A stretch of 64,000 nt of DNA, taken from an uncultured Chloroflexia bacterium. Lineage in GTDB: Bacteria > Chloroflexota > Limnocylindria > Limnocylindrales > CSP1-4. Numbering within the stretch: the stretch's first letter is position 1; each line of letters opens with the position of its first letter. The translations under genes were made by a program, and so were the position numbers. Positions 14,320 through 41,486 of this stretch are shown piece by piece. The notes beneath the pieces were generated by a model, which was given only the letters and a program-made list of their open reading frames with translations, did not search any database and was not told where the DNA came from. The stretch is taken from assembly GCA_963828165.1 (NCBI GenBank), contig CAWHDR010000001.1, positions 416,001 to 480,000 on the forward strand, in the 5' to 3' direction.

Positions 14320-15267
14320 CTAGTTGCGCCAGCCGTGGGCGAGTTCCGGGAGGCGATCGCGCCAGGCCCCGCCCGCGTGTTGCGCGACCAGGATCGCCCC
14401 TTCACGCATCCCCTCCTCTGACACCCGGACCTCGTCGACGCCGTACCGGCGCATGAGCGCTTCGACGATCACGGCGCCCGCGGGGAGGAGCCGTGCCCTG
14501 GTCGGGTTGACGACGTACAGCTCGGAGGTCTCGGCGGCGGTCCGCGCGATGAGGGTCGCGACGGCCTCGGCGACGCGGGCTGCGGTGAGGATGCGGTCGG
14601 CCGTGCCGGCGGCGGTCACCTTGAGGAGGTTGGACGCGGTCCCGCCGACTGCGACGAGATCGGTCGGCTCGGCGGGAAGCGCATCCTGAAGGATCCCGTC
14701 GGCGGCCGTCGTCATCGAGGCAAGCTCGTCGGCGGTCGGCGGGTCGTCGCGGACGTAGCGGGACGTCAGGCGATTGGAGCCGAGGCGCAGGCCGGCCGCA
14801 CGTGCGAGCCCACCGGACGCGACGGCGCAGAATTCCGAGCTGCCGCCGCCGATGTCCACGACCAGCGTCTCGTGCCCCACCGGCAGGCCCATCGTGACGC
14901 CGACGAGCGTCAGATAGGCCTCCTCCTCGTGCGACAGGACGTGCAACGGGACGCCCGTCGCGCGCTCGACGTCGGCGACGATGCGGGCCGCGTCCGCAGC
15001 CCGGCGGATCGGCTCGGTACCCATGAACGTGATCGTGGAGGCGCCTAGCCCGCGGGCGATGGACGCATACCGTTCGAGGGCCTCGACCAACGCCGCACGG
15101 CGAGAAGTGCCCAGGTGTGCCTGATCGTCGATCGCCGCCCCAAGGCCCAGAAAGACCAATTCATCGGCCAGCGGCCGCAGCTCGTGGCCGTCGAGCTCGG
15201 CGACGAGCAGGTGGACGGAGTTCGAACCGAGATCGACCGACGCGCCGACGTGCGGTCGTTGGCTCAC
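14320..15267 (-). CDS. ppx: Ppx/GppA family exopolyphosphatase
   Basis: VDLGSNSVHL, LSHEEEA, VDIGGGSSE, GMREG. Confidence 0.92.
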   Translation of the reverse strand: MSQRPHVGASVDLGSNSVHLLVAELDGHELRPLADELVFLGLGAAIDDQAHLGTSRRAALVEALERYASIARGLGASTITFMGTEPIRRAADAARIVADVERATGVPLHVLSHEEEAYLTLVGVTMGLPVGHETLVVDIGGGSSEFCAVASGGLARAAGLRLGSNRLTSRYVRDDPPTADELASMTTAADGILQDALPAEPTDLVAVGGTASNLLKVTAAGTADRILTAARVAEAVATLIARTAAETSELYVVNPTRARLLPAGAVIVEALMRRYGVDEVRVSEEGMREGAILVAQHAGGAWRDRLPELAHGWRN

Positions 15268-16578: not shown

Positions 16579-16622
16579 GTTAACGAAGCCTTAACCACGC
16601 GGCAAGCGGCTGTTGATGCCAG
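16579..16622 (+). promoter_or_regulatory. Putative PHO box array upstream of pstS
   Basis: GTTAA/CTTAA/GGCAA/GTTGA at 16579, 16590, 16601, 16612 (11-bp period), similar to actinobacterial GTTCA-N6 units. Confidence 0.65.
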
Positions 16623-17711: not shown

Positions 17712-17781
17712 TCCGCATGCCTCCCCCATCCTGGCCTGACGTAGGCTACGAGCACGATCCCGACGAGGAGCGTCACATCGC

Positions 17782-18696
17782 ATGACGAGCGCCCCCATCA
17801 CGCTGACCCGTCAACGGCCGAGGTCGGAACGGGTCATCGAGACCCTGCTCTTCCTGTCCGCGACGCTCGGGGTCCTCACCACCGCGGGCATCGTCCTCGT
17901 GCTGGTATTCCAGACCCTCGAATTCTTCCAGGTCGTCAGCCCGGTCGAGTTCTTCACCGGGACCAGGTGGTCGGCCGGGATCCGGCCCTACGCCTGGGGC
18001 GTCCTGCCGCTGGTGTCGGGGACGATCCTCGTGGCCACCATCGCGATGATCGTCGCGGTGCCGGTCGGCCTCCTGGCAGCGGTTCTCCTGTCCGATTACG
18101 CCTCGCCACGTGTGCGGGCGACCGTCAAGCCGCTGCTCGAGACGATCGCCGGGATCCCGACGATCGTCCTTGGCTTCTTCGCGGTCAACTTCCTTGCGCC
18201 ACAGGTGCTCGTCCCGCTCCTCGGCAAGCAGAACATCGGAACCTTCTCGGCGCTGTCGGGCGGGATCGTGGTGGGCCTGCTCGTCACACCGCTGATCGCC
18301 TCGATCTCGGACGATGCGATGCGAGCGGTCCCGCGCGGGATGCGGGAGGGTGCGTACGCGATGGGCGCCACCAAGTTCGAGGTGATCCGCAAAGTCGTCT
18401 TCCCGGCCGCGATCTCGGGGATCATGGCGTCGATCATCCTCGCGGCGAGCCGCGCCATCGGCGAAACGATGATCGTCTCCCTGGCCGTCGGTGACAAACC
18501 GCAGCTCACCTTCGATCCCACCGAGAGCGTGCAGACGATGACGGCGTTCATCGCGCAGATCGCCATCGGTGAGACAGCGCAGGGATCGATCCAGTTCAAG
18601 TCGCTCTTCGCCGTGGCCGCCACGCTGTTCGTGTTCACGCTCGTCCTCAACCTGCTGAGCGGCTGGGTGGTGCGCAAGTTCCGGACGGAATACTGA
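17782..18696 (+). CDS. pstC: Phosphate ABC permease
   Basis: LETIAGIPTIVLG, EGAYAMGAT, SRAIGETMIV. Confidence 0.96.
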   Translation: MTSAPITLTRQRPRSERVIETLLFLSATLGVLTTAGIVLVLVFQTLEFFQVVSPVEFFTGTRWSAGIRPYAWGVLPLVSGTILVATIAMIVAVPVGLLAAVLLSDYASPRVRATVKPLLETIAGIPTIVLGFFAVNFLAPQVLVPLLGKQNIGTFSALSGGIVVGLLVTPLIASISDDAMRAVPRGMREGAYAMGATKFEVIRKVVFPAAISGIMASIILAASRAIGETMIVSLAVGDKPQLTFDPTESVQTMTAFIAQIAIGETAQGSIQFKSLFAVAATLFVFTLVLNLLSGWVVRKFRTEY

Positions 18697-19598
18697 TGGC
18701 GGCGACCCCGATCCCTGCCGCGACACCGGGCGTCCGGTTCGAGCCGGCGCTCATGCGTCGCAAGCTCAGCGGCACGGTCTTCTACGGGCTGTGCGTCATG
18801 GCGGTCGGGATCCTGCTGCTCGCGTTGGTCATGCTGTTGGTCGATGTCCTTGCTCGCGGCCTGCCATGGCTGGACTGGGAGTTCCTGACCGGTGGCCCGT
18901 CGCGACGACCAGCCAACGCCGGCATCCTGCCTGCCCTGGTGGGCTCGCTACAGGTCGGGATCATCGTCGGAGTCATGACGTTCCCCGTCGGGGTGGCGGC
19001 AGCCATCTACCTCAACGAGTACGCCTCCGATAGCTGGGTGAATCGCCTGCTCCAGACGAACATCAGCAACCTCGCTGGCGTGCCCTCGATCATCTACGGC
19101 ATCCTGGGGCTGGCGGTCTTCGTGCGGCTGATGGGGCTCGGATCGACGATCCTGGCGGCCGGACTCACGCTCACCCTGCTCATCCTGCCGGTGGTCATCA
19201 TCGCCTCGATCGAGGCATTGAAGGCCGTCCCGCAGGCGCAACGCGAGGGCGCGTATGCGCTGGGCGCGACCCGCTGGCAGATGGTCCGGGGCTCCGTCCT
19301 GCCGGCCGCGTCACCGGGGATCATGACGGGGATCATCCTGGCGATGGCCCGAGCCATCGGCGAAGCGGCCCCGCTGATCCTCATCGGAGCCTTCGCGTTC
19401 GTGACGTTCGTGCCGAATCCATTCACCGGTGCCTACACCGTCCTGCCGATCCAGATCTACGACTGGGCGCGGCGGCCACAGGACGACTTCGCCGGGATCG
19501 CCGCCGCGGCGATCATCGTGATCCTGGTCCTGATGCTCGTCCTCAACGCGGTCGCGCTCATCGTCCGAGCCCGCCTTTCGAGGCATATCCAGTGGTAG
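18696..19598 (+). CDS. pstA: Phosphate ABC permease
   Basis: [34 protein letters not shown]. Confidence 0.96.
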
Positions 19599-20491
19599 AG
19601 GAGCATTTCGTGGACACCCAGCTACCGGAGGCGCCTGCCCGCGACCCTTCGACCGATGGTGGCGGGCCCGCGATCCGGCTCGCTGGGATGGCCCGGGACC
19701 ATGTGTCCCCGGAAGCCCAAAGCGAGCGCGAGTACGTCGTCGAGCTCAAGGACGTGTCGTGCTACTACGGCTCATTTCGCGCGGTCAGGAACGTCGACAT
19801 CAAGGTGGAAAGGAATTCGATCACGGCCCTGATCGGTCCGTCCGGCTGCGGAAAGTCGACGCTCCTCCGAACGATCAACCGGATGAACGACCTCGTGCCG
19901 TCCTATCGGTCCGAGGGCAGGATCCTGCTCGATGGCCAGGATCTGTCCGCCAGGACGGTCGATCCTGTCGCCGTCAGGCGCCGGGTCGGCATGGTGTTCC
20001 AGAAGCCGAACCCGTTTCCGAAGACGGTCTGGGAGAACGTGGCATTCGGTCCCAAGATCAACGGATACAAGGGTGATCTCCACGAGCTCGTGGAAACGAG
20101 CTTGCGCCGCGCTGCCCTGTGGGACGACGTCAAGGACAAGCTCAAGCAGTCCGGCATGGCATTGTCAGGCGGCCAGCAGCAGCGCTTGTGCATCGCCCGG
20201 ACCATCGCGGTAAACCCTGAAGTGATCCTGATGGACGAGCCGTGCTCCGCTCTCGATCCGCGCTCGACGCTTCAGATCGAGGAGCTGATGGCGGAGCTCA
20301 AGAAGGAGTACACGATCGTCATCGTCACCCACAACATGCAGCAGGCTGCGCGAGCCTCCGATACGACCGTCTTCATGACGATGGGCGAGGATCGCGCGGG
20401 CTTCGTCGTCGAAACGGCGCAGACCGTCGACATCTTCACGAACCCGAAGAACCAGTTGACCGAGGACTACGTCTCCGGTCGGTTCGGCTAG
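19592..20491 (+). CDS. pstB: Phosphate ABC ATPase
   Basis: [44 protein letters not shown]; start codon approximate. Confidence 0.97.
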
Positions 20492-20504
20492 CACAGGGGA
20501 CGAG

Positions 20505-21266
20505 ATGACCGAGCGAGCCGATAGCCACGACCAGACCGCAGTCGACGACCAGGTCGACCGCCTGCTCGATGCCGCGGCCGGACGCGGCACCGTGGCGAGC
20601 GGCCTCCCGGCCGCGCGCGATTCACTCGACCTCCAGGAGCAGGAGATCAAGGATGCGGTTCTGCGGATGGGGTCGCTCGTCGAGGAGGCCATCCGGCGCG
20701 CCAGTCAGGCACTCACGGGCCACGACGCCGACCTGGCTCTCGACATCGTCAAGGCGGACGCCCGGATCAACGATGCCCAGCGTGAGGTGTCGCGGCAGAT
20801 CAGCGTGGCGATCGCCACACAGCAGCCCGTCGCTCGGGACCTGCGGTACTTGCTCACGCTGGACCACGTGACCTATGAGCTGGAACGGATCGGGGACCAC
20901 GCCTCGTCGGTAGCGAAACAGGTCATCAAGCTGGCACCGGAGCCGCCGCTTGCTGGCTACGTGAGCCTGCCCGAGATGGCCGAACGCTCCGCAGTCCTCG
21001 TCCATGGTGTCCTGCGGGCGCTGGTCGACGCCGATGCGGTCGCGGCGCGCGAGGTGGCGGCCCAGGACGACGACATCGACCGCCTGTACCACGCGACCTT
21101 CGACGACGTCGTCGAGCTGATGCGCCAGGACCCGGCCAACGTCGAGCGCGGGACCCGGATCATCATCGCGTCGCACTATCTCGAGCGGATCGGCGATCGA
21201 TCCACGAACATCGCCGAGGACATCGTCTACCTCGTGACGGGCGACGTGGAGGACCTCAACCCGTGA
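20505..21266 (+). CDS. phoU: Phosphate signalling protein PhoU
   Basis: QQPVARDLR, LERIGDH, LERIGDRSTNIAE. Confidence 0.96.
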   Translation: MTERADSHDQTAVDDQVDRLLDAAAGRGTVASGLPAARDSLDLQEQEIKDAVLRMGSLVEEAIRRASQALTGHDADLALDIVKADARINDAQREVSRQISVAIATQQPVARDLRYLLTLDHVTYELERIGDHASSVAKQVIKLAPEPPLAGYVSLPEMAERSAVLVHGVLRALVDADAVAAREVAAQDDDIDRLYHATFDDVVELMRQDPANVERGTRIIIASHYLERIGDRSTNIAEDIVYLVTGDVEDLNP

Positions 21267-25833: not shown

Positions 25834-27033
25834 TCAGTGCCTGCCGTTGCCGGCGATGGGGACGGCGAACGAGAAGGTCGAGCCGGATCCCTCCGAGGAT
25901 TCGACCCAGATGCGCCCGCCGTGCTGCTCCACGACGTGCCGCGCGATCGCGAGGCCCAGGCCGGTGCCACCACCCGCCTCGGCCCGCATGCGGGCCCGAT
26001 CGACCTTGTAGAACCGCTCGAAGATCCGGCCCTGGGCGTCGCGCGGGATCCCGACCCCGTGATCCTGGACCGACGTGACGATGTCCTCGCCCTCGTGATC
26101 CGCCCGGACCACGATCTCGCCGCCGTCCGGGCTGAACTTCACGGCGTTGTGGACGAGATTCACGACGACCTGGCCCAATCGGGCGGCATCGCCTCGGATG
26201 GGCGGCAGGCCATCGGGCGCCTCGACCCTGAGCGTGACGCCCTGGCGATCGGCGAACAATCGGAGGCGCTCGGCCGACTGCGACGCGAGCCGGCCCATGT
26301 CCAGCCCATCGACCAGCGCGAGGGTGTTGCCGCTCTCGATGCGCGACAGGTCCATGAGCTCGTTGACCATCTGCACGAGGTGCCCGGTCTCGACTTCGAT
26401 CTTGCCGATGCGGTCGCGCATCTTGGGTGGCAGCACCACGTCCGGACCGTCCGCCTCGCGCGACAGCGTCTCGGCAAGGAGGCTCACCGTCGTGAGCGGT
26501 GTCCGGAGCTCGTGCGACAGGTTGTCGATGAATTCGGTCCGGATCCGCTGCAGGCGGCGCAGCTCGGAGACGTCGTCCACGATCAGCCACAGGCCGCTCG
26601 CGTGCGCCCGTCGAGCGAGCACGGTCAGCATCGGACCATCGGCATCGGCCCGGCGGACCTCCGTGCGCGCCGTGCCATTGGCGAGGGCCGCCTGCGCCAT
26701 CGACTCCACCGACGCATCGAGGAACGCCTCCATCACCGATCGACCCACGAGCGTCCCGGGCGCCCGGCCGAGAAGCGCGTGGGCGGCAGCGTTCGCCGAA
26801 AGGACGCGCAGGCCGCGATCCACCCGAACGATCCCCGAGCCCAACGCCCCCAGCAGTGCGGCCTGCTCCGCGGAGGCCCCGGCGATCTCGTCATCTCGCT
26901 GGGCCACGTCGGACCGAAGCCGCCTGATCTCGGCCTGCGATCGGGTCAGGACGCGATCATTGCGGATGGCGATGCCCGCGACCACGAACGCGATGACGGT
27001 CAGCCCAACGCTGATGACGATCCACGGGTCCAC
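25834..27033 (-). CDS. phoR: PhoR/SenX3-like sensor histidine kinase
   Basis: One TM, PAS-like region, SHELRTPL, NLVHNAVKF, FERFYKVD, GTGLGLAI; Pho context. Confidence 0.85.
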   Translation of the reverse strand: MDPWIVISVGLTVIAFVVAGIAIRNDRVLTRSQAEIRRLRSDVAQRDDEIAGASAEQAALLGALGSGIVRVDRGLRVLSANAAAHALLGRAPGTLVGRSVMEAFLDASVESMAQAALANGTARTEVRRADADGPMLTVLARRAHASGLWLIVDDVSELRRLQRIRTEFIDNLSHELRTPLTTVSLLAETLSREADGPDVVLPPKMRDRIGKIEVETGHLVQMVNELMDLSRIESGNTLALVDGLDMGRLASQSAERLRLFADRQGVTLRVEAPDGLPPIRGDAARLGQVVVNLVHNAVKFSPDGGEIVVRADHEGEDIVTSVQDHGVGIPRDAQGRIFERFYKVDRARMRAEAGGGTGLGLAIARHVVEQHGGRIWVESSEGSGSTFSFAVPIAGNGRH

Positions 27034-30718: not shown

Positions 30719-31720
30719 TTGGAAGGCGTCACGTTCGCGCTCGTCGTGGTCATCGTCCTCGCGGTGGCCTTCGACTACATCAACGGATTCCATGACACCG
30801 CGAACGCCATCGCGACGTCGGTGGCGACCCGGGCCCTGAGCCCGCGCCATGCGATCCTCATGGCTGCGTCGTTCAACTTCGTCGGCGCGTTCGCCGGGAC
30901 GGCCGTGGCCAAGACCATCGGCAGCGGCCTGGTCGACGAGGCCACCACGACGCAGTCCGTGGTCGCCGCAGCCCTCGTCGGGGCGATCACGTGGAACCTG
31001 ATCACCTGGTACAGGGGCCTGCCGAGCTCGAGCTCGCATGCCTTGATCGGCGGCCTGCTCGGGGCGACCATCTTTGCGGCCGGGACCGGCGCGTTCAAGA
31101 TCGACGGGATCACCAGCAAGGTGCTGATCCCGATGGTGGTTTCGCCATTCCTCGGCTTCACGATCGCCTTCACGTTGATGCTGGCGCTGTACTGGCTCTT
31201 CCGGAACGCGAAACGGAAGCCCATGGCGCGGATCTTCCGAAGGCTGCAGCTGCTCTCGGCGGGCTACATGGCCTTCAGCCATGGCTCGAACGACGCGCAG
31301 AAGACGATGGGCATCATCACGCTCGCTCTGTTCTCGGCGGGCGTCATCCCGACGAACGACGTTCCGCTGTGGGTGATCGTCGTCGCGGCGACCGCCATGT
31401 CGCTCGGGACGGCCGTGGGCGGCTGGCGGATCATGCGAACGATGGGCCAGCGGGTGGCCGAGCTGGAGCCGGTCCACGGCTTCGCGGCCGAGACCACGGC
31501 TGCGACGATCCTCCTCGGGACCGCCCAGCTCGGGATGCCGGTCTCCACGACGCACATCATCTCCAGCGCCATCATGGGCGTCGGCTCGGCGCGCGGACCG
31601 AAGGGTGTTCGGTGGGGCGTCGCCCGGCGGATCCTGCTGGCCTGGATCATCACCATCCCGGCCGCGGGCACCGTCGCCGCGCTGTCGTGGTTCGTCCTGC
31701 ATACCATCGGCTTCGGCTGA
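30719..31720 (+). CDS. pit: PiT family inorganic phosphate transporter
   Basis: NGFHDTANAIAT, PSSSSHALIGG, HGSNDAQK, PVSTTH; GGAGG RBS with TTG start. Confidence 0.96.
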   Translation: MEGVTFALVVVIVLAVAFDYINGFHDTANAIATSVATRALSPRHAILMAASFNFVGAFAGTAVAKTIGSGLVDEATTTQSVVAAALVGAITWNLITWYRGLPSSSSHALIGGLLGATIFAAGTGAFKIDGITSKVLIPMVVSPFLGFTIAFTLMLALYWLFRNAKRKPMARIFRRLQLLSAGYMAFSHGSNDAQKTMGIITLALFSAGVIPTNDVPLWVIVVAATAMSLGTAVGGWRIMRTMGQRVAELEPVHGFAAETTAATILLGTAQLGMPVSTTHIISSAIMGVGSARGPKGVRWGVARRILLAWIITIPAAGTVAALSWFVLHTIGFG

Positions 31721-31734
31721 ATGAGGAGACACCG

Positions 31735-32352
31735 ATGACGTTCCGCCTGCTCCCCAAGGACGTGCGCTTCTTCGACCTGTTCGTCGCGGCCGGCGAGAAC
31801 CTGCACGCGGCGGCGACCCGTCTCCACGAGATGGTGACGAGCTACGAGAACCTCAACGAGCACGTGGTCGAGATCCAGCGGCTCGAGAAGGCCGGTGACG
31901 GGATCGACCGCGAGATCAACCAGCGGCTCGAAGATGCCTTCATCACGCCCTTCGACCGTGAGGACATCCACGAGCTGACCGTCCAGCTCGACGACGTCGT
32001 CGACGGCATCCAGGCCGTGGCCGAGACGCTGGTCATCTACGACATCGTGCAGCCGACCGAGGAGGCACGCGAGCTCACCCGGATCCTGGCGGATCAGTCG
32101 GTGGAGCTGCTCGCGGCGCTGCGCAAGCTCGATGGGCTCAAGGACGTGGATGCCCACCTCGTGCTGGTCCATGACCTCGAGCATGAGGCCGACGGCCTGT
32201 CGCGGGCGGCGATCGGGCGGCTGTTTCGCGATGGGTCGGCGCCGATCGACGTCATCAAGTGGCGCGACCTGTATCGCGAGCTCGAGAACTCGATCGATGC
32301 AGCCGAGGATGCCGCCGAGGCGATCGAGCGGATGTTCCACAAGGCGACCTGA
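31735..32352 (+). CDS. DUF47/PhoU-like Pit accessory protein
   Basis: FITPFDREDI, LEHEAD, IKWRD; directly follows pit. Confidence 0.93.
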   Translation: MTFRLLPKDVRFFDLFVAAGENLHAAATRLHEMVTSYENLNEHVVEIQRLEKAGDGIDREINQRLEDAFITPFDREDIHELTVQLDDVVDGIQAVAETLVIYDIVQPTEEARELTRILADQSVELLAALRKLDGLKDVDAHLVLVHDLEHEADGLSRAAIGRLFRDGSAPIDVIKWRDLYRELENSIDAAEDAAEAIERMFHKAT

Positions 32353-32382
32353 AGGACCGTCAGGCAGCCATCCCGGATCCGC

Positions 32383-33078
32383 CTAGGACGGACGCCGGAA
32401 GACGTAGCCCACGCCGCGAACCGTGTGGATGAACACCGGATTGCCGGGATCCTCCTCGATCTGGCTGCGCAGCCAGTGCACGTGCACATCGACCGTGCGT
32501 GTCTCGCCGGCGTAGTCGTAGCCCCAGACCTTCTCGAGCAGCTGGTCGCGGGTGAAGACCTGGCCCGGATTACGGAGCAGGAACGCGAGCAGCTCGAACG
32601 CCTTGGGCTTGATCGGCAGGGTCACGCCGTCGCGCAGGAGTCGATGGCCGCCGAGATCCGCCTGCACGCGGCCCAGGTCGACGATCGTCGGCGGCGACCC
32701 GACCGCGAGCGCGGCTTCCGAACGCCGGAAGAGGGCTCGGATCCGCGCCGTCAGTTCGCGCAGCGAGAACGGTTTCGTGACGTAGTCGTCCGCGCCGAGC
32801 TCCAGCCCGACCACCTTGTCGAGCTCCGAATCCTTCGCGGTGAGCATCACGATCGGGGTGCCTGACTCCGCGCGGATGATCCGCATCACCTCGATCCCGG
32901 AGAGCTCGGGCAGCATGAGATCGAGCAGGACGAGGTCCGGGCGCTCCCCCCGGAACTGCGTCAGGGCCTCGCGCCCGTCCCCTGCGGCAACGACTCGGAA
33001 TCCGTCCGACTCGAGCGCTTCGACCAGCGTCTCGCGCAGCGTCGGTTCGTCTTCGACGACCAGGATCGTTCGTGCCAT
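32383..33078 (-). CDS. OmpR/PhoB-family response regulator (PhoP/RegX3-like)
   Basis: LLDLMLP, GADDYVTKPFS, RTVDVHV, TVRGVGY; Pho context. Confidence 0.93.
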   Translation of the reverse strand: MARTILVVEDEPTLRETLVEALESDGFRVVAAGDGREALTQFRGERPDLVLLDLMLPELSGIEVMRIIRAESGTPIVMLTAKDSELDKVVGLELGADDYVTKPFSLRELTARIRALFRRSEAALAVGSPPTIVDLGRVQADLGGHRLLRDGVTLPIKPKAFELLAFLLRNPGQVFTRDQLLEKVWGYDYAGETRTVDVHVHWLRSQIEEDPGNPVFIHTVRGVGYVFRRPS

Positions 33079-33095
33079 CCACCGCTGAGCATAGC

Positions 33096-33149
33096 CGGGC
33101 GTGTTAACTCGGGCGTGTTAACGACTTGTTCATGCGTTGTCAAGCGTTG
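33096..33149. promoter_or_regulatory. PHO-box-like array upstream of the response regulator
   Basis: GTTAA (33117), GTTCA (33128), GTCAA (33139) at 11-bp period; CGGGCGTGTTAAC duplicated at 33096 and 33110. Confidence 0.6.
33119..33130 (+). repeat. Putative attL core
   Basis: TAACGACTTGTT; 11/12 identical to 39471-39482, first 8 bp exact. Confidence 0.7.
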
Positions 33150-33550
33150 CACACAATCTGGGGAGAGCGTGGTAGCGCCTGCATTTAGCAGGGTCTCAAC
33201 AGGGCGATACTCGGATTAGGTGTTAACGTGGGTTCGGTGGACTAGTAGGCCTAATAGGCCTACGTAGTACATGAGGTGGCCATCGTGCGCACGGCATACT
33301 GCGGGGGGTATGCGTGGATCGCCTTGCGTAGAAGACGCCCCCGCTACTCTGGCAGATGTCAGTCAACCGGAATAGCAAAGGCGTCTCCTATGACTCTACA
33401 ACGACCGGCGGTCCAACGCCATGCCATGTTTGAGATCCACGTCATCGCCCCGCCAGGTCGCTATCGCGATCCTGGCTGTCGCCATTTGGCTTCGCCGCCG
33501 GGACGGGGCTAGGGCTCTACTTTTTGGCGCAGTTATGGGGTGTAAAACGA

Positions 33551-33671
33551 ATGCCGAACATCGTCTACCAGTGCCGCAAATGCGGAATGAGCATCGACGC
33601 TGACGAACGAGCGTCCTGGTGCGAAAAGATGTCGGGATCAGGACCGGCGGCAGCATCGACATCAACGCTAA
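33551..33671 (+). CDS. Putative ~39-aa zinc-ribbon protein (needs 1-bp correction)
   Basis: MPNIVYQCRKCG...WCE; removing one A from 33624-33627 gives CERC and a stop at 33669-33671. Confidence 0.35.
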
Positions 33672-34013
33672 TCGACAGGATGAGGAAGTCGCCCACAAGG
33701 GCCATGAGGGCTATGGACGGCGCGGGGATATCGCGTTGTCAGCGAGGGGCCTCTGCGGGAAATCGTGCCCTAGGTCTGCGCCGAAGGGCTCGTAGGGTGA
33801 TTGGACTCGTCGGCCGTTTCGCGGGCCTCTTCCGTCGATATTTCACGCTAGGGCACGGCTCACTTAGGCCCCCTGATTTCGGAGACTGTCGGTGCCGCGA
33901 TAAGGGCGGATTTGGGGGGTACTTTTGTGCGGGGCGTGGTCCGCTCGGGCGGCCGGGTTGCCCTCCGCTATGTCCTCAGAGATAAGGCCCGATTTCGCGG
34001 ACTGTCGCCCTAA

Positions 34014-34106
34014 CTAGAACAGCGGCGGGACGGCAGCATCGCAGGTCAGAAAAAGCAAGAGAACGATGGCCGCTACCAGGACGACGGTCGCCGGCCGGAC
34101 CCTCAT
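34014..34106 (-). CDS. 30-aa single-TM peptide
   Basis: Hand translation MRVRPATVVLVAAIVLLLFLTCDAAVPPLF; starts 3 bp after the previous stop. Confidence 0.55.
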   Translation of the reverse strand: MRVRPATVVLVAAIVLLLFLTCDAAVPPLF

Positions 34107-34109
34107 CGG

Positions 34110-34229
34110 TCAGAGCCCCGGCGGCGGGGCCGCCTGATGCACGGGCTGCGTCAGCCACAGGATCACGAACAGGACGATCCAGAACGCGATCACCGACGCG
34201 ACGACGGCTACCAGTGCCCTCGATTTCAT
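34110..34229 (-). CDS. 39-aa single-TM peptide
   Basis: Hand translation MKSRALVAVVASVIAFWIVLFVILWLTQPVHQAAPPPGL; TGATG coupling to the upstream ORF. Confidence 0.65.
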   Translation of the reverse strand: MKSRALVAVVASVIAFWIVLFVILWLTQPVHQAAPPPGL

Positions 34230-34501
34230 CAGCCCACCTTAGCCGCCTGCCATCGCTCGAGCGTGGCCGCCACCACGGAGACGATGCGGCAGCGGTAGTC
34301 CTGCATCACAAGGTCGATATCGGCGGGCACGAGCCGGGCGACGATCTCCGCCTCTAGCTCAATGATCTCGGCATCGTTGTCCACGATGCCGCCCAGCACT
34401 TCGGCCAGGGACGCATCCTCGAGCGCATCGGTGTAGAGCATGTCGAAACCTACTAGCGGCGCGATGTGACGGTGCGCCTCTCGTGTAGCCTCCGAGGGCA
34501 T
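34229..34501 (-). CDS. Acidic hypothetical protein (90 aa)
   Basis: GGGAGG RBS; MPSEATREAHRH...; coupled to the downstream peptide. Confidence 0.65.
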   Translation of the reverse strand: MPSEATREAHRHIAPLVGFDMLYTDALEDASLAEVLGGIVDNDAEIIELEAEIVARLVPADIDLVMQDYRCRIVSVVAATLERWQAAKVG

Positions 34502-34571
34502 GATGATGCCCTCCCGTCTCCCGAGGAAACAAGAGGGCAAAAGGTACGGCGTGTCGATACGTGCTGGGCGG

Positions 34572-35810
34572 CTACTCCAGGACGCCGGAGCGCGGCGTGT
34601 TGCGGGGGTCAAAGGGCTTCGGCGGCTTGGGCGGCCTGAGCAAGGCGCCGGCCTTCGCCGCTTCCGCTGCGGCCTGACCCGCCGCTACGCCTGCGGCCGT
34701 CGCTGCGGCCGCTGCGCCTGACACGGTTCCCACCACTGAGGCAGGCGATAGCGTCGCCGGCGGGCTCGACGGCGCCGGGATGCTAGGGCTCGGAGGAGGC
34801 GACGCGGGTGGTCGCGCGAAGAGGCCGGGGACGGTCCCCATCTTCGGCAGTTCCGGCGGACCGGCTTCCTTGCTGGCCGGCGACTTGCCGGCGAACAGCT
34901 CCTGCGTGACTTGTCGGATCGAGTCCATCCCGTCGAGGATGCTGGAGCGGAGGTCGCCACCACCGCCTTGCGTGGTCGCCTCCTGTACTCCCACTCCCAG
35001 ACGGGATAGCCCGCCTTCGTCCTTTCGGTAGTCGAGGCGCCTGCGCCGCTCTGCGGCCTCCAGGCGCTGGCGGTACTCCTCCACTCGCGTCGGGCCGAGC
35101 GTTCTCACCGTGCCGTCCGCCACGAGGGCGAGTAGGTCGTCGGGGGAGATCGGCGTATCGAGCATCAACGGATCAGCGGAGCCGGCGTTGATGGCGCCCT
35201 GATCCACAAGGGCCGCGTTGGCGATGGGTCGGATGGAGGCGTTGCCCTTCTCGTCGGTGAGGCGATCGACCAAAAGCGAGAACACCGCCAGCCCGTCGAT
35301 GACGCCAGCAAGCGGGTCCATCTTCCAGGGGTTCGTCTCGGTGAAGAACATCTGGCGCGTTGCCGGGTCGATGACGCCATAGCGGGTTTGTCCGGTCGCG
35401 GGGTTACGGAACACGTAGCCGGCCGCTTCGCCGGGGGCGATCGCGGGCGAACCGTTATCAAGGCCAGCCCGAAGGGTGGCCGCGTCGATATCGCTCGGTG
35501 AGATGGCGCGGTACTCCTCGCCGGGAATGACGAGGGCGGCAGCCCTGACGGGCTCGCCCTTCAGGTACACCACGCGACGCTCGCCGTTCACGACGCTGAT
35601 GGAGGGCTGTAGCGAGTCGTCGAGCCCTAGGCCGCCCGCAGGCCACTGGATGACCTCGAGGGGGCCGCCGACCTCTTTCTGGCCGTAGTAGGCCCGTCCA
35701 GAGGTCAGGGCCTCCAAGTCGGCCCTTAGTTGCGTCGCGCCGGCCGCCGAGTTTGCAGCGTCAGCCGTGACGACGCCTTCCCCGGTATTCGGAGGTGGCC
35801 TCCCGAACAA
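34572..35810 (-). CDS. Large orphan protein with Pro/Ala-rich C-terminus
   Basis: 412-codon ORF co-oriented with the other element genes; start uncertain. Confidence 0.7.
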   Translation of the reverse strand: MFGRPPPNTGEGVVTADAANSAAGATQLRADLEALTSGRAYYGQKEVGGPLEVIQWPAGGLGLDDSLQPSISVVNGERRVVYLKGEPVRAAALVIPGEEYRAISPSDIDAATLRAGLDNGSPAIAPGEAAGYVFRNPATGQTRYGVIDPATRQMFFTETNPWKMDPLAGVIDGLAVFSLLVDRLTDEKGNASIRPIANAALVDQGAINAGSADPLMLDTPISPDDLLALVADGTVRTLGPTRVEEYRQRLEAAERRRRLDYRKDEGGLSRLGVGVQEATTQGGGGDLRSSILDGMDSIRQVTQELFAGKSPASKEAGPPELPKMGTVPGLFARPPASPPPSPSIPAPSSPPATLSPASVVGTVSGAAAAATAAGVAAGQAAAEAAKAGALLRPPKPPKPFDPRNTPRSGVLE

Positions 35811-36027
35811 ACTCCCGCCGCTCGGCCGCCTCTATCAAGAGAAGGATGCAGTGGTGCTAACTAACGGGATCAGGGGCCATGTTGCCTAGCACTTCCGTGC
35901 ACAGATGACGGCCGCTCGGGGCTCGATAGCCCCTGATAATCGGCCGCTATCGGTGCCTGTTCGCCTGCCCTGTCTAGGGCCAGGCTCACGCGTTACGTGC
36001 GCGATCGCGTCTGCGTGCGCGTAGGAC

Positions 36028-36135
36028 TCAGCCCTGCGTCTGGATCGCGGCGAGAGCTTGGTACGCCAAGAACCACAGCACGACGATGGCGAGGGCCAGG
36101 ACGATGATGATGACCGTAGGCCTTCGCCCGATCAT
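36028..36135 (-). CDS. 35-aa single-TM peptide
   Basis: Hand translation MIGRRPTVIIIVLALAIVVLWFLAYQALAAIQTQG; GGAG RBS. Confidence 0.65.
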   Translation of the reverse strand: MIGRRPTVIIIVLALAIVVLWFLAYQALAAIQTQG

Positions 36136-36146
36136 GTGGTGCTCCG

Positions 36147-36242
36147 TCAGGTAAGCAGGAGGATCAGTGCCACGAGGGCCAGGACGCCCAGCACGCCCAG
36201 CACCGAGACGATGACGATGACGGTGGCAGTTCGACCGCTCAT
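36147..36242 (-). CDS. 31-aa single-TM peptide
   Basis: Hand translation MSGRTATVIVIVSVLGVLGVLALVALILLLT. Confidence 0.6.
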   Translation of the reverse strand: MSGRTATVIVIVSVLGVLGVLALVALILLLT

Positions 36243-36291
36243 CGACAGACTCTAACGCCTCGGTGTAGCAGCTCGCGCCACGTTGCGCGGC

Positions 36292-36447
36292 TTACGAGGT
36301 CGCATCGGGCGCCTTCCTTACCACGACTATCGGAGAGGTCAGCCATTCGGTGTGGCGATGCCATCGGCAAGCGCCTCGTGTCAGCCTGTGGACTGGCCGC
36401 AGCTCGTTGCAGATGACACATCGACGCAGGGCTTGACGCTTACGCAT
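36292..36447 (-). CDS. 51-aa putative zinc-finger protein
   Basis: Hand translation MRKRQALRRCVICNELRPVHRLTRGACRWH... (CxxC...CxxH); TGATG coupling to rep. Confidence 0.55.
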   Translation of the reverse strand: MRKRQALRRCVICNELRPVHRLTRGACRWHRHTEWLTSPIVVVRKAPDATS

Positions 36448-37160
36448 CAGAACGGAAGATCCTCAGACGAGGGACACGTCGGGAAATGGAATGCGCCACC
36501 CTCCAGGTCGGCTGCCCGCTCGCCGATGATCGGCTCGCCACAGTTGCTACACGTCGGAGGGAGCGGAGCGGCGGTAGCCGCGGTAGCGACCGTCTCCACC
36601 CTCATCGACGAGTCTGAAGTTCGCGAAGCGAACGAAACTATCTCGCTCTCTCGCTCGCTCTGTTGCTCGCTCTCTCTCTCGCTCTCTATGTGTCCCGGTT
36701 CGTGCGTGATTTCCGCAGATATTCCGGGGCTTTCCGGGGTTGCGCCCGGAGGTGCGAGTCGCTTTCGCTCTCGATCCTTGGCTCTCCGGCGCTCCGACAC
36801 GAGTTGCCGCAGCAGTTCGTCCTGCTTCCGCTCCTCGGCCGGCGCCATCGGGTTCCACATCCGCCACTGTGGGATGACCAGCGTGCCGTTGCGGTTCACC
36901 CTGACGAGATCCGACGCGATCAGGTCCTCCAGGTAGACGGAGTACTCGCGGAGGGCCGCTTCCAGGTATTCGCGGCCAAGCCACACGCCGCGCACGCGCT
37001 CGAGGAATGCGGCGATGAGGGCGTACACGAAGGCGACACGTGCGCTGTCGCTCGGCAGTCCGAGCCACTTCGGATTGTCCCGCAGAAACACGTACAGGCG
37101 GAGCCAATCGGTCGTCTTGTCGGGGCGCTCTCGCGGCGGGCTCTCGGTCGGTTCAGTCAT
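36447..37160 (-). CDS. Putative phage-type replication initiator (replisome organiser-like)
   Basis: WLRL...DNPK...IPQWRMWNP...R.KDRERKR layout, low-complexity linker with internal DNA repeats, C-terminal CxxC...HxxxC. Confidence 0.6.
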   Translation of the reverse strand: MTEPTESPPRERPDKTTDWLRLYVFLRDNPKWLGLPSDSARVAFVYALIAAFLERVRGVWLGREYLEAALREYSVYLEDLIASDLVRVNRNGTLVIPQWRMWNPMAPAEERKQDELLRQLVSERRRAKDRERKRLAPPGATPESPGISAEITHEPGHIESERESEQQSERESEIVSFASRTSDSSMRVETVATAATAAPLPPTCSNCGEPIIGERAADLEGGAFHFPTCPSSEDLPF

Positions 37161-37170
37161 GGGCGGTTCG

Positions 37171-37222
37171 TCCTGTATGCGAGGGGTAGGCTCCGCTCGC
37201 CCGCATACGACGAGCGGAGCCT
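37171..37222 (-). promoter_or_regulatory. Predicted RNA hairpin/pseudoknot in the rep leader
   Basis: Perfect 12-bp stem; loop GTATGCG is complementary to CGCATAC next to the AGGA SD. Confidence 0.55.
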
Positions 37223-37341
37223 GTTTCGCCGGCGGAGGCTACAAATCCGCACGCCGACGTGGAACGCGCAGCGGATCAGCCAACGGGCAGGGGTACGGGG
37301 ACCGGGAGTAGCTTCGGCCCCTCGCACTCACTTCCAGAAAA

Positions 37342-37896
37342 CTATGCAACGAACGTCGGCCGCCACAGTTCGCGGCGGCCTTCTTTCGGGTCCCCGAGGT
37401 CGAACAGGTCCCCGAGGTCGTTGATGTCGAGGAGCCGGCCCACGTTCGCTTGATCTCGACTCACGGTGGATTGCCTGACGCGGAGAACGGCGGCAATCTG
37501 TCCCTGCGAGCCGTAGGGAGTGGCGAGCCAGGCGGCCGTCTGACGCTCGCCCGCACCTAGCGATTGCACGAGGTGCGCCCGCCAGAGGAACCCGATCATC
37601 GGCGCGTAGTCGTAGGTGCCGTCGTCGGGCTCGTCGGAGACAACCCGGACGATGCTGTCATCTGGCGTCTCAGCGATGGCCGACAGGGGTATGGCCGGGT
37701 CGTCCAGCTCCGAGTACGTGATGCCGATCCCACCGAGGTAGGCGCGCATCGACTGGGGAAAGAGTCGAGCCGCCTTGATGTAGTTCAGGTTGCGCTCGTC
37801 GCAGGCCAGGCACTCGCCGGAGGTGGGCGGGACCTTGCAGTCCGCGGTCGGGCAGACATGGCAGCGATGGCGGAGATCCCGACCGATGCGGGTCAT
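37342..37896 (-). CDS. Zinc-binding + C-terminal HTH putative regulator
   Basis: CHVC...C...CLAC at the N-terminus; SQGQIAAVLRVRQSTVSRD HTH. Confidence 0.65.
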   Translation of the reverse strand: MTRIGRDLRHRCHVCPTADCKVPPTSGECLACDERNLNYIKAARLFPQSMRAYLGGIGITYSELDDPAIPLSAIAETPDDSIVRVVSDEPDDGTYDYAPMIGFLWRAHLVQSLGAGERQTAAWLATPYGSQGQIAAVLRVRQSTVSRDQANVGRLLDINDLGDLFDLGDPKEGRRELWRPTFVA

Positions 37897-38168
37897 GCCG
37901 ACTTCCGCGACTGCGCCGACTTTGCCGCCAAGCGGGCGAAGTGCGCCCGTCTCAGGAACTCAGCACGGCGGGCGCGCTCGAGCTCGGAGAGGTCAGGAGG
38001 GAGGATCGTGGGCGGGCATACCGCGCACTCGTGGCCGACGAGAAAGGATCTCCGATACGCGTCTCTGGCGGGCGGCGTGATGGCCGTGCCGCCGTACCGT
38101 GCGGCCGTGGTGAGGCCGCCCAGGCGGCCACGTGCCGCCATGCTGGACGATTGGCGCTCGGGCGCCAC
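37893..38168 (-). CDS. Small basic hypothetical protein
   Basis: ERARRAEFLRRAHFARLAAKSAQSR; ATGA overlap with the next ORF; start uncertain. Confidence 0.65.
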   Translation of the reverse strand: MAPERQSSSMAARGRLGGLTTAARYGGTAITPPARDAYRRSFLVGHECAVCPPTILPPDLSELERARRAEFLRRAHFARLAAKSAQSRKSA

Positions 38169-38484
38169 TAGTGGGCCAGGGCGGGTACCGATGAGCCTGC
38201 GGCGGCAACAGGGTTGGGGCGTGCGCCCATGGGCGTTTCTCCGGTTCGGGATGCGGGGTCACAGGGCTAAATGGTAGCCCGCTCGTATGCCCAGGGCGGC
38301 CGATTTCGGGCCGCTCGTGATGATCGGCTTGATACGCATTGCGACACAGGATGTCGAACCGGTTATCCACGACCGCCCGATGGATTAGGGTGGAACTCGT
38401 GGGTTCCGAAAGCCGCCCGATCCATCGGGCGCTTGTAGTAGTAGGCGTCGAGGAAGTAGGCAGCATGGCCCAGCCGCCAAGGGC

Positions 38485-39412
38485 CTATTCCTCGGCGTAG
38501 AGGCGGTCGTACGCGTCGCTCGCGCGTTCCCACTTCGCGGCCTTGCCGTACCGCTGGACCATCTTCGCGTTCCGCCAACCGCCGAGGGCCATGAGGATCT
38601 CGTCGGTGGCGCCCTTCGCCTTCAGGTCGTGGGCGAACGCGTGGCGCAGTTGATGCGGAGTCACGTGTCCGACCCCGGCCATTCGCCCGCGACGTTCCAC
38701 CATCGCGCCGAGCGCGGCGATGGAAAGGGGCTGGCCCTGTAGTCCGACCCACAGGCGCCCGGACTTGCCGGCCTTCGACTTGCGAGCCTCGATGTAGCGG
38801 ATCAGCGCGACCGCGGCCTCGGGCGAGAAGCGCGCCCGGCGCGGGTCGCCTCCCTTGCCGCGTCGGATCAGCGCCCGACCCGCATCCGTGTCGATGTCCT
38901 CGAGCATGAGCATCGCGCACTGCGCGCGACGCATCCCCGAGCTGCGGAGCACGAGCAGGATGGCGAGGTCGCGCCGATCGAGGAACGTCGGCGGCTTGTG
39001 CTTGCGGCATGTTGCCAGCATCCGATCCAGCGCGGCATCCGACACGAACGGGCGCCCCGCATCGTCCTCGGGAACGACGATCGGCTTGATGCCCTTCATG
39101 GGCGAGTCCTTCAGCTCGCCCTCTGCCACGAGGTACGAGAACCAACCCCGTAGCCCCTGATAGCGCAGGCGAGCCGAGGCCGGCGCGTAGGGCAGATTGA
39201 GGAACTCGCGGACGTGCTCGGCACTGATCGCAGCGGGCGCCGTAGGCATCCCCTGCCCTGTCAGGAAGGTCCCGAACATGGCGCAGCGTGCCGAGGTAAC
39301 TACGAATTGTTCCGGGGCTCTTGCCCTCCTGTCGGAGCGCACGCTCGCAGGACAGCATTCCGGCGCCGAAGTCTCCCGATACGCCTTCAGGTGTTAGCAC
39401 CACTTGAGCCAT
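38485..39412 (-). CDS. Tyrosine recombinase/integrase, apparent +1 frameshift at ~39280
   Basis: Catalytic set SGMR, RGKG, HQLRH, GGW, QRY; N-terminal core-binding segment SPGTIRSY is in the adjacent frame. Confidence 0.92.
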
Positions 39413-39470
39413 AGCAGCACCCATTAACAGGGGGTGTTCGTGCGTAGATGCACGAACTGAAAGCATACGC

Positions 39471-39482
39471 TAACGACTCGTT
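39471..39482 (+). repeat. Putative attR core
   Basis: TAACGACTCGTT, about 60 bp upstream of the integrase start. Confidence 0.7.
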
Positions 39483-39513
39483 TGCGCGGTGTTCACTCGA
39501 TCGCGATCGCCGG

Positions 39514-39930
39514 TCAGCGTGATGCCTTCAACCGCTCGGGGAGCTCCATGTAGTACTCGACGAACTCGACGCAGCGGCCGTCGTCGTCGAATCGGAGCGT
39601 CCACAGGTTGAAGTACAAGTCGCGCAGCGAGCCGTCCGGATTCGTGTATCGGCTCTCCCCGATCGCCACGGCTCGGTCGCCGTCGACGGCGTACGGCTCG
39701 TAGTGGGCGGTCCAGCTGTCGGGATCGTCGAGGCTGCTGGCGTCGCCCGATGGTTCCGTCCAGGCCTTGACGATGGCCTCGCGTCCGTTCACGGCCTCCG
39801 GGTCATAGGGGTGGTACTTGTACGTGGCGTTCTCGGCGAACAACTCGCCGATGGCCTTCGGGTCGTACGTGCGCCAGGCCTCGACGTATCGATCGAGCCA
39901 GTCCTGCACAGCGTCGCGGCTGATGCTCAC
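39514..39930 (-). CDS. SnoaL/NTF2-like protein
   Basis: WLDRYVEAWRTYDP..IGELF, LRFDDDGRCVEFVEYY; GAGGAGG RBS. Confidence 0.85.
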   Translation of the reverse strand: MSISRDAVQDWLDRYVEAWRTYDPKAIGELFAENATYKYHPYDPEAVNGREAIVKAWTEPSGDASSLDDPDSWTAHYEPYAVDGDRAVAIGESRYTNPDGSLRDLYFNLWTLRFDDDGRCVEFVEYYMELPERLKASR

Positions 39931-39989
39931 CGGGACCTCCTCATCCGTATCTTCGGGCGCAGCTTCGCTCGCGTTCCTGACAGGGAGTG

Positions 39990-41486
39990 TCAGGAACCCT
40001 CCAGGACCGCGATCGCTCGGTCGAGCCGAGCGAGCGTCCGCTCCCGACCGAGCGCGACGAGCGTATCGAACAGCGGCGGCGTGGCGGTCCGGCCGGTGAC
40101 TGCGACGCGGATGGCCATGAACAGGTCGCCGGCCTTCCAGCCCCGTGCCTCCGCGAGGGCGCGCAGCAGCGGCTCGAGCTCGTCCGCCTCGAAGACCACG
40201 TCCCGCACGGTCGCGATGGTCTCGCGGGCAGCGCCCAGGCCGTCGATCGTGGTCGGCGCATCCCAGCGCTTGGGGACGAGGACGGCCGGGTCCGGATCGA
40301 CGTCGTCGACCCACAGGAAACCCGCGAGGTCGCCGATGGCACCCAGCGTCGGCAACCGCTCCTGGATGACGGGGAGCAGCGCGTGCAGCTCGTCGTCGGA
40401 CGGCATCTGCTCGATCCGCCCCGCGTCCAACTCCTTCCGGACGAACGGGCGCAGTCGATCGATGAGGTCGGCGGCGCTCAGGCGCCGGATCCATTGGCCG
40501 TTCAGCCACTCGAGCCGCTCGCGATCGAAGACGGCGCCGCCCTTGTGCACCTCTCCGATGTCGAACCGCTCGACGATCTCGTCGAGAGAAAGGACTTCCT
40601 CCTCCGTCCCGGTGGACCAGCCGAGGAGCGCGAGATAGTTGACCAGGGCCTCCGGGATGAAGCCTTCATTGATGTAGGCATCGATCGCGGTCTGGCTCTT
40701 GCGCTTGCTCATCTTCGTGCGGTCCGTGTTGAGGATGAGCGGCAGGTGCGCGAAACGGGGCACGTCGTAGCCCAGGGCTCGGAACAGGAGGATGTGCTTG
40801 GGCGTGTTCGAGAGGTGGTCCTCGCCGCGGATGACGTCGGTCACCTCCATCGCCGCGTCGTCGACGACGACGGTGAAGTGGTAGAGCGGGTTGCCATCCG
40901 CGCGGACGATCACGAAATCGCCGCCGAGGTTGCTCACGTCGAACTCGACGTGGCCGCGCACGATGTCGTCGAAGCCGACCACCCCCTCGCCGACCCGGAA
41001 GCGAAGAGCGCCGCGCCGGCCCTCCGCCTCGCGCGCGAGCCGCTCCTCGGGCGTGAGTTTCGCGCACCGCCCGACGTAGCGCGGCGGCTGCCTCGCCGCC
41101 TCCTGGGCCTTGCGATCGGCGTCGAGCTCCTCGGGCGAGCAGTAACAGGGATAGGCGAGGTCGTCGGCCAGCAGGCGCTGCGCGGCCGCGGCGTAGCTCG
41201 GCAGGCGCTCCATCTGGCGGTACGGCGCATGCGGGCCGCGGGCGGGCTCACCGGCGACCTCCGGACCCTCGTCCCAGTCCAGGCCGAGCCAGTGCAGCCC
41301 GTCGAGGATGTCCTTCTCGAACTCGAGCGTGCTGCGCGTGACGTCGGTGTCCTCAAGGCGGAGGATGAAGGTACCGCCGACATGCCGAGCGTGGAGGTAG
41401 TTGAACAGCGCCGTCCGCGCCGTACCGATGTGGAGCGGGCCCGTCGGGCTGGGGGCGATGCGGACCCTGGAGGGCGTTTCAGGCAT
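39990..41486 (-). CDS. gltX: Glutamate--tRNA ligase
   Basis: RIAPSPTGPLHIG, IRGEDH, KMSKR. Confidence 0.97.
   Translation of the reverse strand: MPETPSRVRIAPSPTGPLHIGTARTALFNYLHARHVGGTFILRLEDTDVTRSTLEFEKDILDGLHWLGLDWDEGPEVAGEPARGPHAPYRQMERLPSYAAAAQRLLADDLAYPCYCSPEELDADRKAQEAARQPPRYVGRCAKLTPEERLAREAEGRRGALRFRVGEGVVGFDDIVRGHVEFDVSNLGGDFVIVRADGNPLYHFTVVVDDAAMEVTDVIRGEDHLSNTPKHILLFRALGYDVPRFAHLPLILNTDRTKMSKRKSQTAIDAYINEGFIPEALVNYLALLGWSTGTEEEVLSLDEIVERFDIGEVHKGGAVFDRERLEWLNGQWIRRLSAADLIDRLRPFVRKELDAGRIEQMPSDDELHALLPVIQERLPTLGAIGDLAGFLWVDDVDPDPAVLVPKRWDAPTTIDGLGAARETIATVRDVVFEADELEPLLRALAEARGWKAGDLFMAIRVAVTGRTATPPLFDTLVALGRERTLARLDRAIAVLEGS

Follow-up and report, generated by a model that had tools for sequence, protein, structure and literature searches.

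A 6.37-kb insertion in the candidate Pho-type operator of a RegX3/PhoB-like regulator gene carries a look-alike of that operator

The locus analyzed here lies in a 64-kb stretch of DNA, referred to below as the window (positions 416,001 to 480,000 of contig CAWHDR010000001.1), from an uncultured Chloroflexia bacterium of the order Limnocylindrales. The source assembly measures 3.3 Mb in 6 contigs, with 87.7% completeness and 69.6% GC. Near the middle of the window, a gene on the minus strand (32383..33078) encodes an OmpR-family response regulator of 231 aa, RegX3/PhoB-like, with a canonical receiver and the Pfam domains Response_reg and Trans_reg_C. It is preceded by the −10 hexamer TATGCT (33088..33093, minus strand), located 9 nt upstream of the ATG, and by the promoter-proximal box GTTAAC in its native position (33103..33108), which forms the last host bases before a long insertion. 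The right-hand neighbour of the insertion on the host side is a SnoaL-like gene (39514..39999, minus strand), assigned by Pfam SnoaL_2 and by synteny with relatives. An earlier reading of the sequence, hereafter the original prediction, had proposed that a mobile element integrated here into an array of PHO boxes, regenerated it in register and tied its own excision or integrase expression to phosphate status.

Comparison with other genomes from the same genus established the limits of the insertion. The flanks that end at 33108 and restart at 39475 directly adjoin each other in the three closest relatives; since the left and right flanks are contiguous in these genomes, the intervening 33109–39474 (6366 bp) represents an insertion. 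The left flank is 95.8, 94.7 and 92.4% identical in G106, G143 and G043, respectively, the right flank is 90–92% identical over 2 kb, and the element DNA is entirely absent at all three empty loci. Homology with the relatives, which on the query side covers the 5′ end of the regulator gene and its promoter, stops at 33108. The empty sites read GTTAAC GAC(T/C)(T/C)GTTTGCGCG(G/C)(T/C)GTTCAC, and the excision product foreseen from the sequence, GTTAAC gactc GTTTG cgcggt GTTCAC, matches these real sites with 1–3 substitutions. The regulator promoter region is present in 114 of the 131 genomes of the genus, and the junction was read in 39 relatives (19 and 20, from two samplings of the genus). In all 39, a single (G/A)TTAAC stands at a constant distance from the start codon, and host DNA follows it immediately. 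The GC content is 0.655 in the element versus 0.70 in the 10 kb on each side. The insertion is real and neatly delimited, and it sits in a conserved operator. That an operator rather than a tRNA gene was the target also held: the element lies within the first box of an array with an 11-bp period, and no tRNA gene was found in the window.

The targeted operator is shared across the genus. The insertion falls within the promoter-proximal box of the array GTTAAC-n5-GTTnn-n6-GTCAA, which occurs once per relative in 39 of 39 cases. Read in the sense direction, the genus promoter comprises a third box of the GTTGAC/CTTGAC type, 5–6 nt, a second box of the TGAAC/CTAAC type, 5 nt and the first box GTTAAC, followed downstream by 9 nt, a TAnnnT hexamer, approximately 9 nt and the ATG. 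The first box is GTTAAC in 38 relatives and ATTAAC in one; RTT recurs at +11 in 38 of the 39, and a third box of the GTSAR type is found in at least 25. The hexamer is present in every relative (TATGCT in 23, TATCCT in 13, TACCAT in 2 and TATCAT in 1), its distance to the first box being 9 nt in 38/39 and its distance to the ATG 9 nt in 29/39, with 8 nt in 7 more. The regulator promoter is compact and apparently of a leaderless type, and the direct-repeat operator occupies the place of a −35 element. A Pho box requires at least two direct units at an 11-nt period near the −10/−35 region, and three such units are found here. Neither a consensus sigma-70 promoter nor a terminator was detected by scan at the left junction, and no Rfam family was identified within 32000–40500. 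The motif is infrequent in this genome: GTTAAC has 18 sites in 3.3 Mb, and even TTAAC is rare, with 75 matches on both strands, 11 of which are in the window (4 at pstS, 4 at the left attachment site, attL, 2 at 33222 and 1 at 39424). One relative (G012) contains two copies of the regulator region, 87% and 80% identical, on separate contigs of its assembly, which may indicate a mixed bin or a duplication.

A look-alike array, GTTAAC gactt GTTCA tgcgtt GTCAAG, was confirmed at 33117..33144, where the left junction passes into the element. To score it, a 28-column matrix was built from the regulator operators of the 39 relatives only and scanned over the whole genome (approximately 6.6 million positions). 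The element array was ranked first genome-wide with 33.8 bits, followed by the displaced host array (26.1 bits) and the pstS promoter (21.8 bits), with the background at or below 17.4 bits; native arrays of the relatives score 5–40 bits with the same matrix, with a median of about 36. Over the 22 columns beyond the shared first box, the element array reaches 20.2 bits versus 20.1 for the host's displaced array, and a 20.2-bit match on 22 columns would arise by chance at roughly one position in a million. With its GTTCA and GTCAAG boxes, the element array is nearer to the genus majority than to the host's own boxes, GTTTG and GTTCAC. Operator mimicry by the element end is convincing at the level of sequence, and at that level the proposal that the element supplies replacement boxes to the host regulator holds.

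Further into the element, 100 bp from its end, a third GTGTTAAC is located at 33220–33227, so that three of the four copies of this motif in the 3.3-Mb genome are in the element region. A perfect 19-nt palindrome, GTAGGCCTA-A-TAGGCCTAC, comes next, at 33245–33263; the two features could represent a recombinase site, a regulator site or an insulating hairpin. The sole other GTGTTAAC in the genome, in minus-strand reading, lies outside the window (G000:C1:830317-830345). There, on the plus strand, ACGCAAGGCC and TATACT follow, which gives the same box–spacer–hexamer layout as in the regulator promoter. This site is upstream of an ABC-transporter ATPase gene that may belong to the same regulon.

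Two parts of the original prediction, the core of the attachment (att) site and the regeneration of the array in register, were borne out only partially. The proposed 8-bp core TAACGACT is indeed present at both ends, with the left copy, a candidate crossover core, at 33119..33126 and the right copy at 39471..39478, within which host homology restarts at 39475; six copies exist in the 3.3-Mb genome. Judged by the empty sites, however, the inserted DNA, 33109–39474, is flanked by TAAC only, and TAACGACT qualifies as the flanking repeat only if 14 bp are counted as host DNA. These extra 14 bp, TCGGGCGTGTTAAC (33109..33122), match the preceding host bases at 13 of 14 positions. They form a near-tandem copy in which CGGGCGTGTTAACT (33096–33109) is followed by CGGGCGTGTTAACG (33110–33123), again 13/14 identical. 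No second GTTAAC within 30 nt was found in the 39 relatives; because the copy is absent from all of them, the new boxes lie 14 bp farther from the −10 than the native ones. The array is thus regenerated in register internally, but it stands 14 bp farther from the −10 than in every relative. Relative to the −10, this offset shifts the array out of its native phase by 1.3 helical turns, and the native proximal box is unmoved. Both 14-bp copies contain CGGGC, where the closest relatives have CGCGC or CCCGC, and this private motif shared by the two copies suggests a local event in this lineage. The 14 bp can be read in three ways: they may be part of attP, the attachment site of the element, with a crossover in TAAC only; they may have been acquired by the host before or after integration at TAACGACT; or they may be the footprint of an earlier misaligned excision. 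Neither the 8-bp core nor the 14-bp copy is among the 20 repeat families listed by the repeat scan of the window, and a search of metagenome contigs for the exact 20-mer of the host junction returned only two identical low-GC chance matches.

At the right junction, the displaced host boxes GCTAAC gactc GTTTG cgcggt GTTCAC (39469..39496) now face the integrase gene, int. Upstream of int, a TATGCT hexamer (39462..39467, minus strand; AGCATA on the plus strand) is identical to the −10 of the regulator gene, and an inverted repeat of 8 bp with a 6-nt loop (39436..39457, minus strand) lies between this hexamer and the int start. All of these features, described in the original prediction, are present. 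The inverted repeat folds as a hairpin, within a stretch of ordinary folding energy (z −0.29). The hybrid box GCTAAC of the right attachment site (attR) is separated from TATGCT by 1 nt, versus 9 nt in 38 of 39 native promoters, so that a bound regulator would be more likely to occlude the hexamer than to activate from it. No consensus promoter was detected by scan at attR, and no terminator at either junction.

The int gene itself (38485..39412, minus strand) encodes a tyrosine integrase whose frame is broken near 39268–39286. The N-terminal approximately 45 codons, starting from the ATG at 39412 (MAQVVLTPEGVSGDF...SYLGTLR), are in a different frame than the catalytic part at 38485–39342 (FGTFLTGQGMPTAP... 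to the stop at 38485). The assignment is supported by matches to phrog_1 (2.2e-38) and phrog_216 (4.6e-27), by PF00589 in the database entry and its homologues, and by the motifs HQLRHAFAH and RYGK in the translation, as expected for the catalytic domain of a tyrosine recombinase. Intact homologues of 306–310 aa, with 73–82% identity, align without a gap across the break point, and a homologue from the genus aligns to both frames on either side of 39268–39286; an uninterrupted frame including the N-terminal SAM-like core-binding domain is absent from this copy. Like the XerC/XerD-like phage integrases of about 300 aa, the 306–310 aa homologues combine PF13495 with PF00589, and it is the broken frame that sets the present copy apart. 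A 367-aa open reading frame (ORF) reported at int by the simple ORF list was rejected, being in the wrong frame and belonging to no family. A TTAAC near int could be a recombinase site.

Relatives of the integrase are distant. Close copies were found neither in the genome-contig nor in the viral-contig collections; within the genus, integrase relatives occur in 28 of the 131 genomes at no more than 43% identity, and none of the 30 loci contains GTGTTAAC. An integrase homologue (P0034) compared with 400 genomes sampled from the order yielded no match at E ≤ 1e-70. The best phage matches of the integrase are tyrosine integrases of Mycobacterium phages, with 33.5% identity, and a profile search of viral contigs with the integrase homologues recovered only relatives of 30–37% identity. 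In one IMG/VR contig encoding a 36% identical integrase (L102:2330-2440), a tRNA-like 3′ end, GGTTCGAACCC...CCACCA, is located just upstream of int. The position of this distant integrase beside a tRNA-like end suggests that targeting of an operator is not a habit of the whole family.

The ORFs between the regulator gene and int are nearly all leftward and have no Pfam family. An ORF of 412 aa (34572..35810, minus strand) corresponds to the C-terminal half, from residue ~316 to the end, of a family of unknown function of about 700–750 aa, which has 30 library matches at E ≤ 0.001 with the ORF's own sequence included. The N-terminal half of this family has no match anywhere in the genome. The ORF has no Pfam or PHROG family, and neither it nor its 693-aa homologue (P0004) gave a match in phages, plasmids, 130 genomes of the genus or 400 genomes sampled from the phylum, the last of these searched with P0004. 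An ORF of 237 aa (36447..37160, minus strand) is weakly similar to replication initiators (phrog_9474, E 0.0034), and its 56% identical homologue (P0002) matches phrog_3926 (E 2e-4). This Rep-like ORF has two homologues among 5.8 billion proteins and none in the viral, genome or plasmid collections; the homologue P0001 stands at 96%. CT-rich tandem repeats of the CTCGCTCTCT type, with a 12-nt period, lie inside it at 36637–36689 and encode a stretch rich in Ser, Glu and Arg that is conserved in both database homologues. The third ORF, of 184 aa (37342..37896, minus strand), has no family and no known function, with GC at the third codon position of the coding type. The last is a small ORF next to int (37893..38258, minus strand), without a Pfam family. 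In two viral contigs, L101 and L102, tblastn located its relatives beside related integrases, which makes the ORF a candidate for a directionality factor or a regulator.

For the element ORFs tested against Pfam and PHROG, there was no match to a transfer ATPase, a capsid protein or any other named family. The combination of an FtsK/SpoIIIE-type transfer protein, Rep and Int that defines an actinomycete integrative and conjugative element (AICE) is not present, the Rep side being limited to the weak match above. Searches of the 130 other genomes of the genus recovered neither the element nor its parts, and the genome, viral and metagenome collections yielded no close copy complete with flanks. 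An exact scan of viral contigs with its left end gave 0 matches, and tblastx of the element against the loci collected for comparison returned compositional noise only. With a frameshifted int and a half-length gene, the present copy looks decayed, and it is probably a decaying, inactive remnant.

The identity of the boxes was considered next to that of the regulator. The best PDB matches of the latter are RegX3 (229.6 bits) and MtrA (227.6 bits) of M. tuberculosis. With NCBIfam models, it stays below both cut-offs, scoring 232.8 vs 296.2 for PhoB (TIGR02154) and 254 vs 300 for MtrA; a better MtrA candidate is encoded elsewhere in the genome beside a kinase (286 vs 253 bits). Its receiver shows the customary features: an acidic pocket, Asp, Thr and Lys. 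A GlnR-type orphan regulator was ruled out on the grounds of this canonical receiver and of the best matches to RegX3 and MtrA.

The regulator gene is placed at the far end of a phosphate neighbourhood that extends over 12284–32352 of the window, unlinked from the kinase. This neighbourhood includes CHAD/CYTH (12284–14305), ppx (14320–15267), pstSCAB-phoU (16704–21266), a PAS histidine kinase (PAS-HisKA-HATPase, 25834–27033), whose best models are PnpS and PhoR, both below cut-off, and PiT with a DUF47 PhoU-like gene (30719–32352). It also holds an arsC/LMW (low-molecular-weight)-phosphatase-like gene and a GDPD phosphodiesterase gene directly downstream of the PAS histidine kinase. Upstream of pstS, at 16579..16617 (plus strand), the boxes GTTAAC gaagc CTTAAC are followed by two more 11-bp steps. 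The strict pattern GTTAAC-n5-CTTAAC is found at pstS in 11 of 18 relatives and a looser four-step pattern at 14 of 19 loci, so the motif also stands upstream of the pst operon, as is expected of a Pho box.

In the accounts of the actinobacterial PHO box in PMC4415409 and PMC6754071, the boxes are made up of directly repeated 11-nt units whose core is GTTCAC(C). The boxes studied here share with them (Streptomyces PhoP, GTTCACC; Microlunatus, GTTCACnnnnnGTTCaC) the 11-nt units and a GTTNAC-type core, and in these accounts such boxes likewise precede pst genes and the gene for the regulator itself. They differ in that the dominant unit here is GTTAAC or CTTAAC, that the regulator gene is apart from the kinase gene and that binding is predicted from sequence. 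On balance, we regard the array as probably a Pho box.

Our favoured explanation, to which we assign a probability of roughly 0.6, is that an element now decayed entered the RegX3/PhoB-like promoter with a replacement array of its own. An integrative element of 6.37 kb would have recombined into the compact promoter of the regulator gene. The crossover is placed in TAAC(GACT), where the promoter-proximal one of the three operator units has its upstream edge; this operator is most likely the autoregulatory Pho-type array of the lineage. Its attP-derived left end, bearing its own array, would leave the host gene with operator-like boxes that may function as such. We hypothesize that an intact ancestor used the conserved operator as attB, the attachment site in the host, and carried a replacement array, thereby sparing autoregulation. 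In the present copy, the regulator gene would retain its −10 and proximal box, with upstream boxes mis-phased by 14 bp, and transcription may read through from the element genes, all of which are directed toward the regulator gene. Given the mis-phased boxes and a position downstream of approximately six co-oriented element ORFs, autoregulation has probably been altered and fixed. We consider this the likeliest consequence of the insertion today, ahead of an excision switch controlled by phosphate; in intact relatives of the element such control is possible but finds no support here.

Several points weigh against this explanation. The crossover could span 4 bp or 8 bp, and attP is deduced from one integrated copy. 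The array could also be host DNA taken up by an earlier imprecise excision, without any selected function. According to this alternative, the boxes were the flank of a former host and the 14-bp copy is the footprint of misaligned recombination. In favour of this alternative, the element array is nearer to the genus consensus (GTTCA/GTCAAG) than to the host's own boxes (GTTTG/GTTCAC), and the host's private CGGGC in the 14-bp copy points to local recombination. Against this, all three boxes stand at full native score, which drift would erode. Selected replacement and capture are, moreover, not mutually exclusive. As a replacement for the favoured explanation, capture without function is a tentative possibility.

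The next group of points concerns the phosphate link. The kinase nearest to the regulator gene is 5.3 kb away, with other genes between, and the two do not form one operon. In the reverse of the matrix comparison, pstS is recovered (28.5 bits) by a matrix derived from 14 pstS promoters, and the regulator operator is not in its genome top 10; the identification as PHO boxes, reasonable in view of the regulator type, the neighbourhood and the boxes at pstS, is weakened to this extent. The link between the regulator and pstS promoters appears to consist mainly of GTTAAC and a TT at +11. Furthermore, at least 5 of 18 relatives encode an atypical OmpR-type protein directly upstream of the boxes at pstS, and this protein could be what binds them. 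This protein (L079, L080, L083, L084 and L095) has 230–255 aa and a winged helix, with no recognisable receiver; it was not found in the present genome, whose closest match to it, at 38%, is the regulator, and is absent from that position in G043.

In the second alternative, the boxes are a conserved operator of another regulator or simply the promoter architecture of the genus, and the element uses a conserved, AT-richer att site. The failed reverse comparison speaks for it, as do the near-equal MtrA and RegX3 scores of the regulator, below the NCBIfam cut-offs. The rarity and conservation of GTTAAC would make it a good recombinase target, and the third GTGTTAAC and the TTAAC near int could be recombinase sites. 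Set against it are boxes of the same type and with the same 11-bp spacing upstream of pstS, conserved across the genus, a neighbourhood rich in phosphate genes, and the location of the boxes 9 nt upstream of the −10, a layout that fits the Pho promoters as far as these are described in the published accounts cited above. We consider this alternative doubtful.

A third alternative retains the whole of the original prediction: the element is active, its attP is a working promoter copy, the box array and TATGCT drive int, integration and excision are coupled to phosphate, and the operator is regenerated exactly. In its general form, the attP of the intact family would be a functional copy of the autoregulated promoter of the Pho regulator, boxes and −10 included; one regulator would control both the host gene and int, integration would swap the arrays, lysogeny and excision would read out phosphate, and the Pho set-point would be retuned. 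Among native −10 hexamers, the TATGCT seen upstream of int is the most frequent (23 of 39 relatives), and AGCATA together with GC on the element side of attR resembles the host promoter core. The host boxes are turned toward int, and the element array is the equal of native ones. However, the int frame is broken relative to its 73–82% identical intact homologues, the 1-nt spacing at attR favours occlusion over activation, the boxes at attL are offset by 14 bp, no consensus promoter was detected by scan, and one element gene is of half length. The proposed tie of int expression or excision to phosphate finds no support, in view of the broken frame, the non-native geometry of box and −10 at attR and the missing consensus promoter. 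The active element is unlikely, as is its general form for the intact family.

The least likely alternative is that the 14-bp copy, the int frameshift or both are assembly errors and the true element is intact with clean TAACGACT flanks: the assembly is incomplete, in 6 contigs, and single-base indels are a common type of assembly error, so the frameshift could be one, but neighbouring housekeeping and other long genes are uninterrupted (proS, 631 aa; gltX, 498 aa; the pst genes), and a 14-bp near-tandem copy with one substitution is atypical of consensus errors.

We return to the favoured explanation of an element with a replacement array. If its look-alike boxes are functional, they would constitute operator mimicry, allowing insertion into the autoregulatory loop of a global regulator without killing that loop, and the element might listen to the regulator's signal. 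The decayed copy, with its 14-bp shift, may be a natural experiment in altered Pho autoregulation. As by-products, the analysis provides a conserved candidate Pho operator of GTTAAC-type units for a poorly studied high-GC genus, and a leaderless-type promoter model for the regulator gene.

Mobile elements usually target tRNA genes or the ends of genes, which are rebuilt from their own DNA. Elements integrating into tRNA genes rebuild the 3′ end of the tRNA from element DNA, and SXT supplies a new promoter and 5′ end to prfC. In the present case, what is rebuilt is a transcription-factor operator that precedes the gene for a master regulator. SXT/R391 resides in the 5′ extremity of prfC, as stated in PMC5812530. 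Both kinds of element resemble the present one in that attP and attB are homologous beyond the crossover and an interrupted host function is rebuilt; the difference is that a non-coding operator array is rebuilt here, with a phase error of 14 bp. A limited full-text literature search brought up no described case in which an element had inserted into a Pho-type operator and copied it.

The closest known analogue is, in our comparison, phage HK022 at torS. According to Carey et al. 2019 (PMC6814406), HK022 integrates between torS and torT in E. coli and ablates the native torS promoter together with an IscR site; torS is then driven from a phage promoter, and replacement of cis elements is proposed there as a general mechanism. 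Both insertions lie in a short regulatory region before a two-component gene, and in both the native cis parts are replaced by element DNA. HK022 differs in supplying a different, phage promoter and removing IscR control, whereas the present element supplies an operator look-alike of the same type; in addition, torS is a kinase gene, whereas the gene here is one for a response regulator. Insertion into an operator that rewires a host promoter is rare, though not unprecedented.

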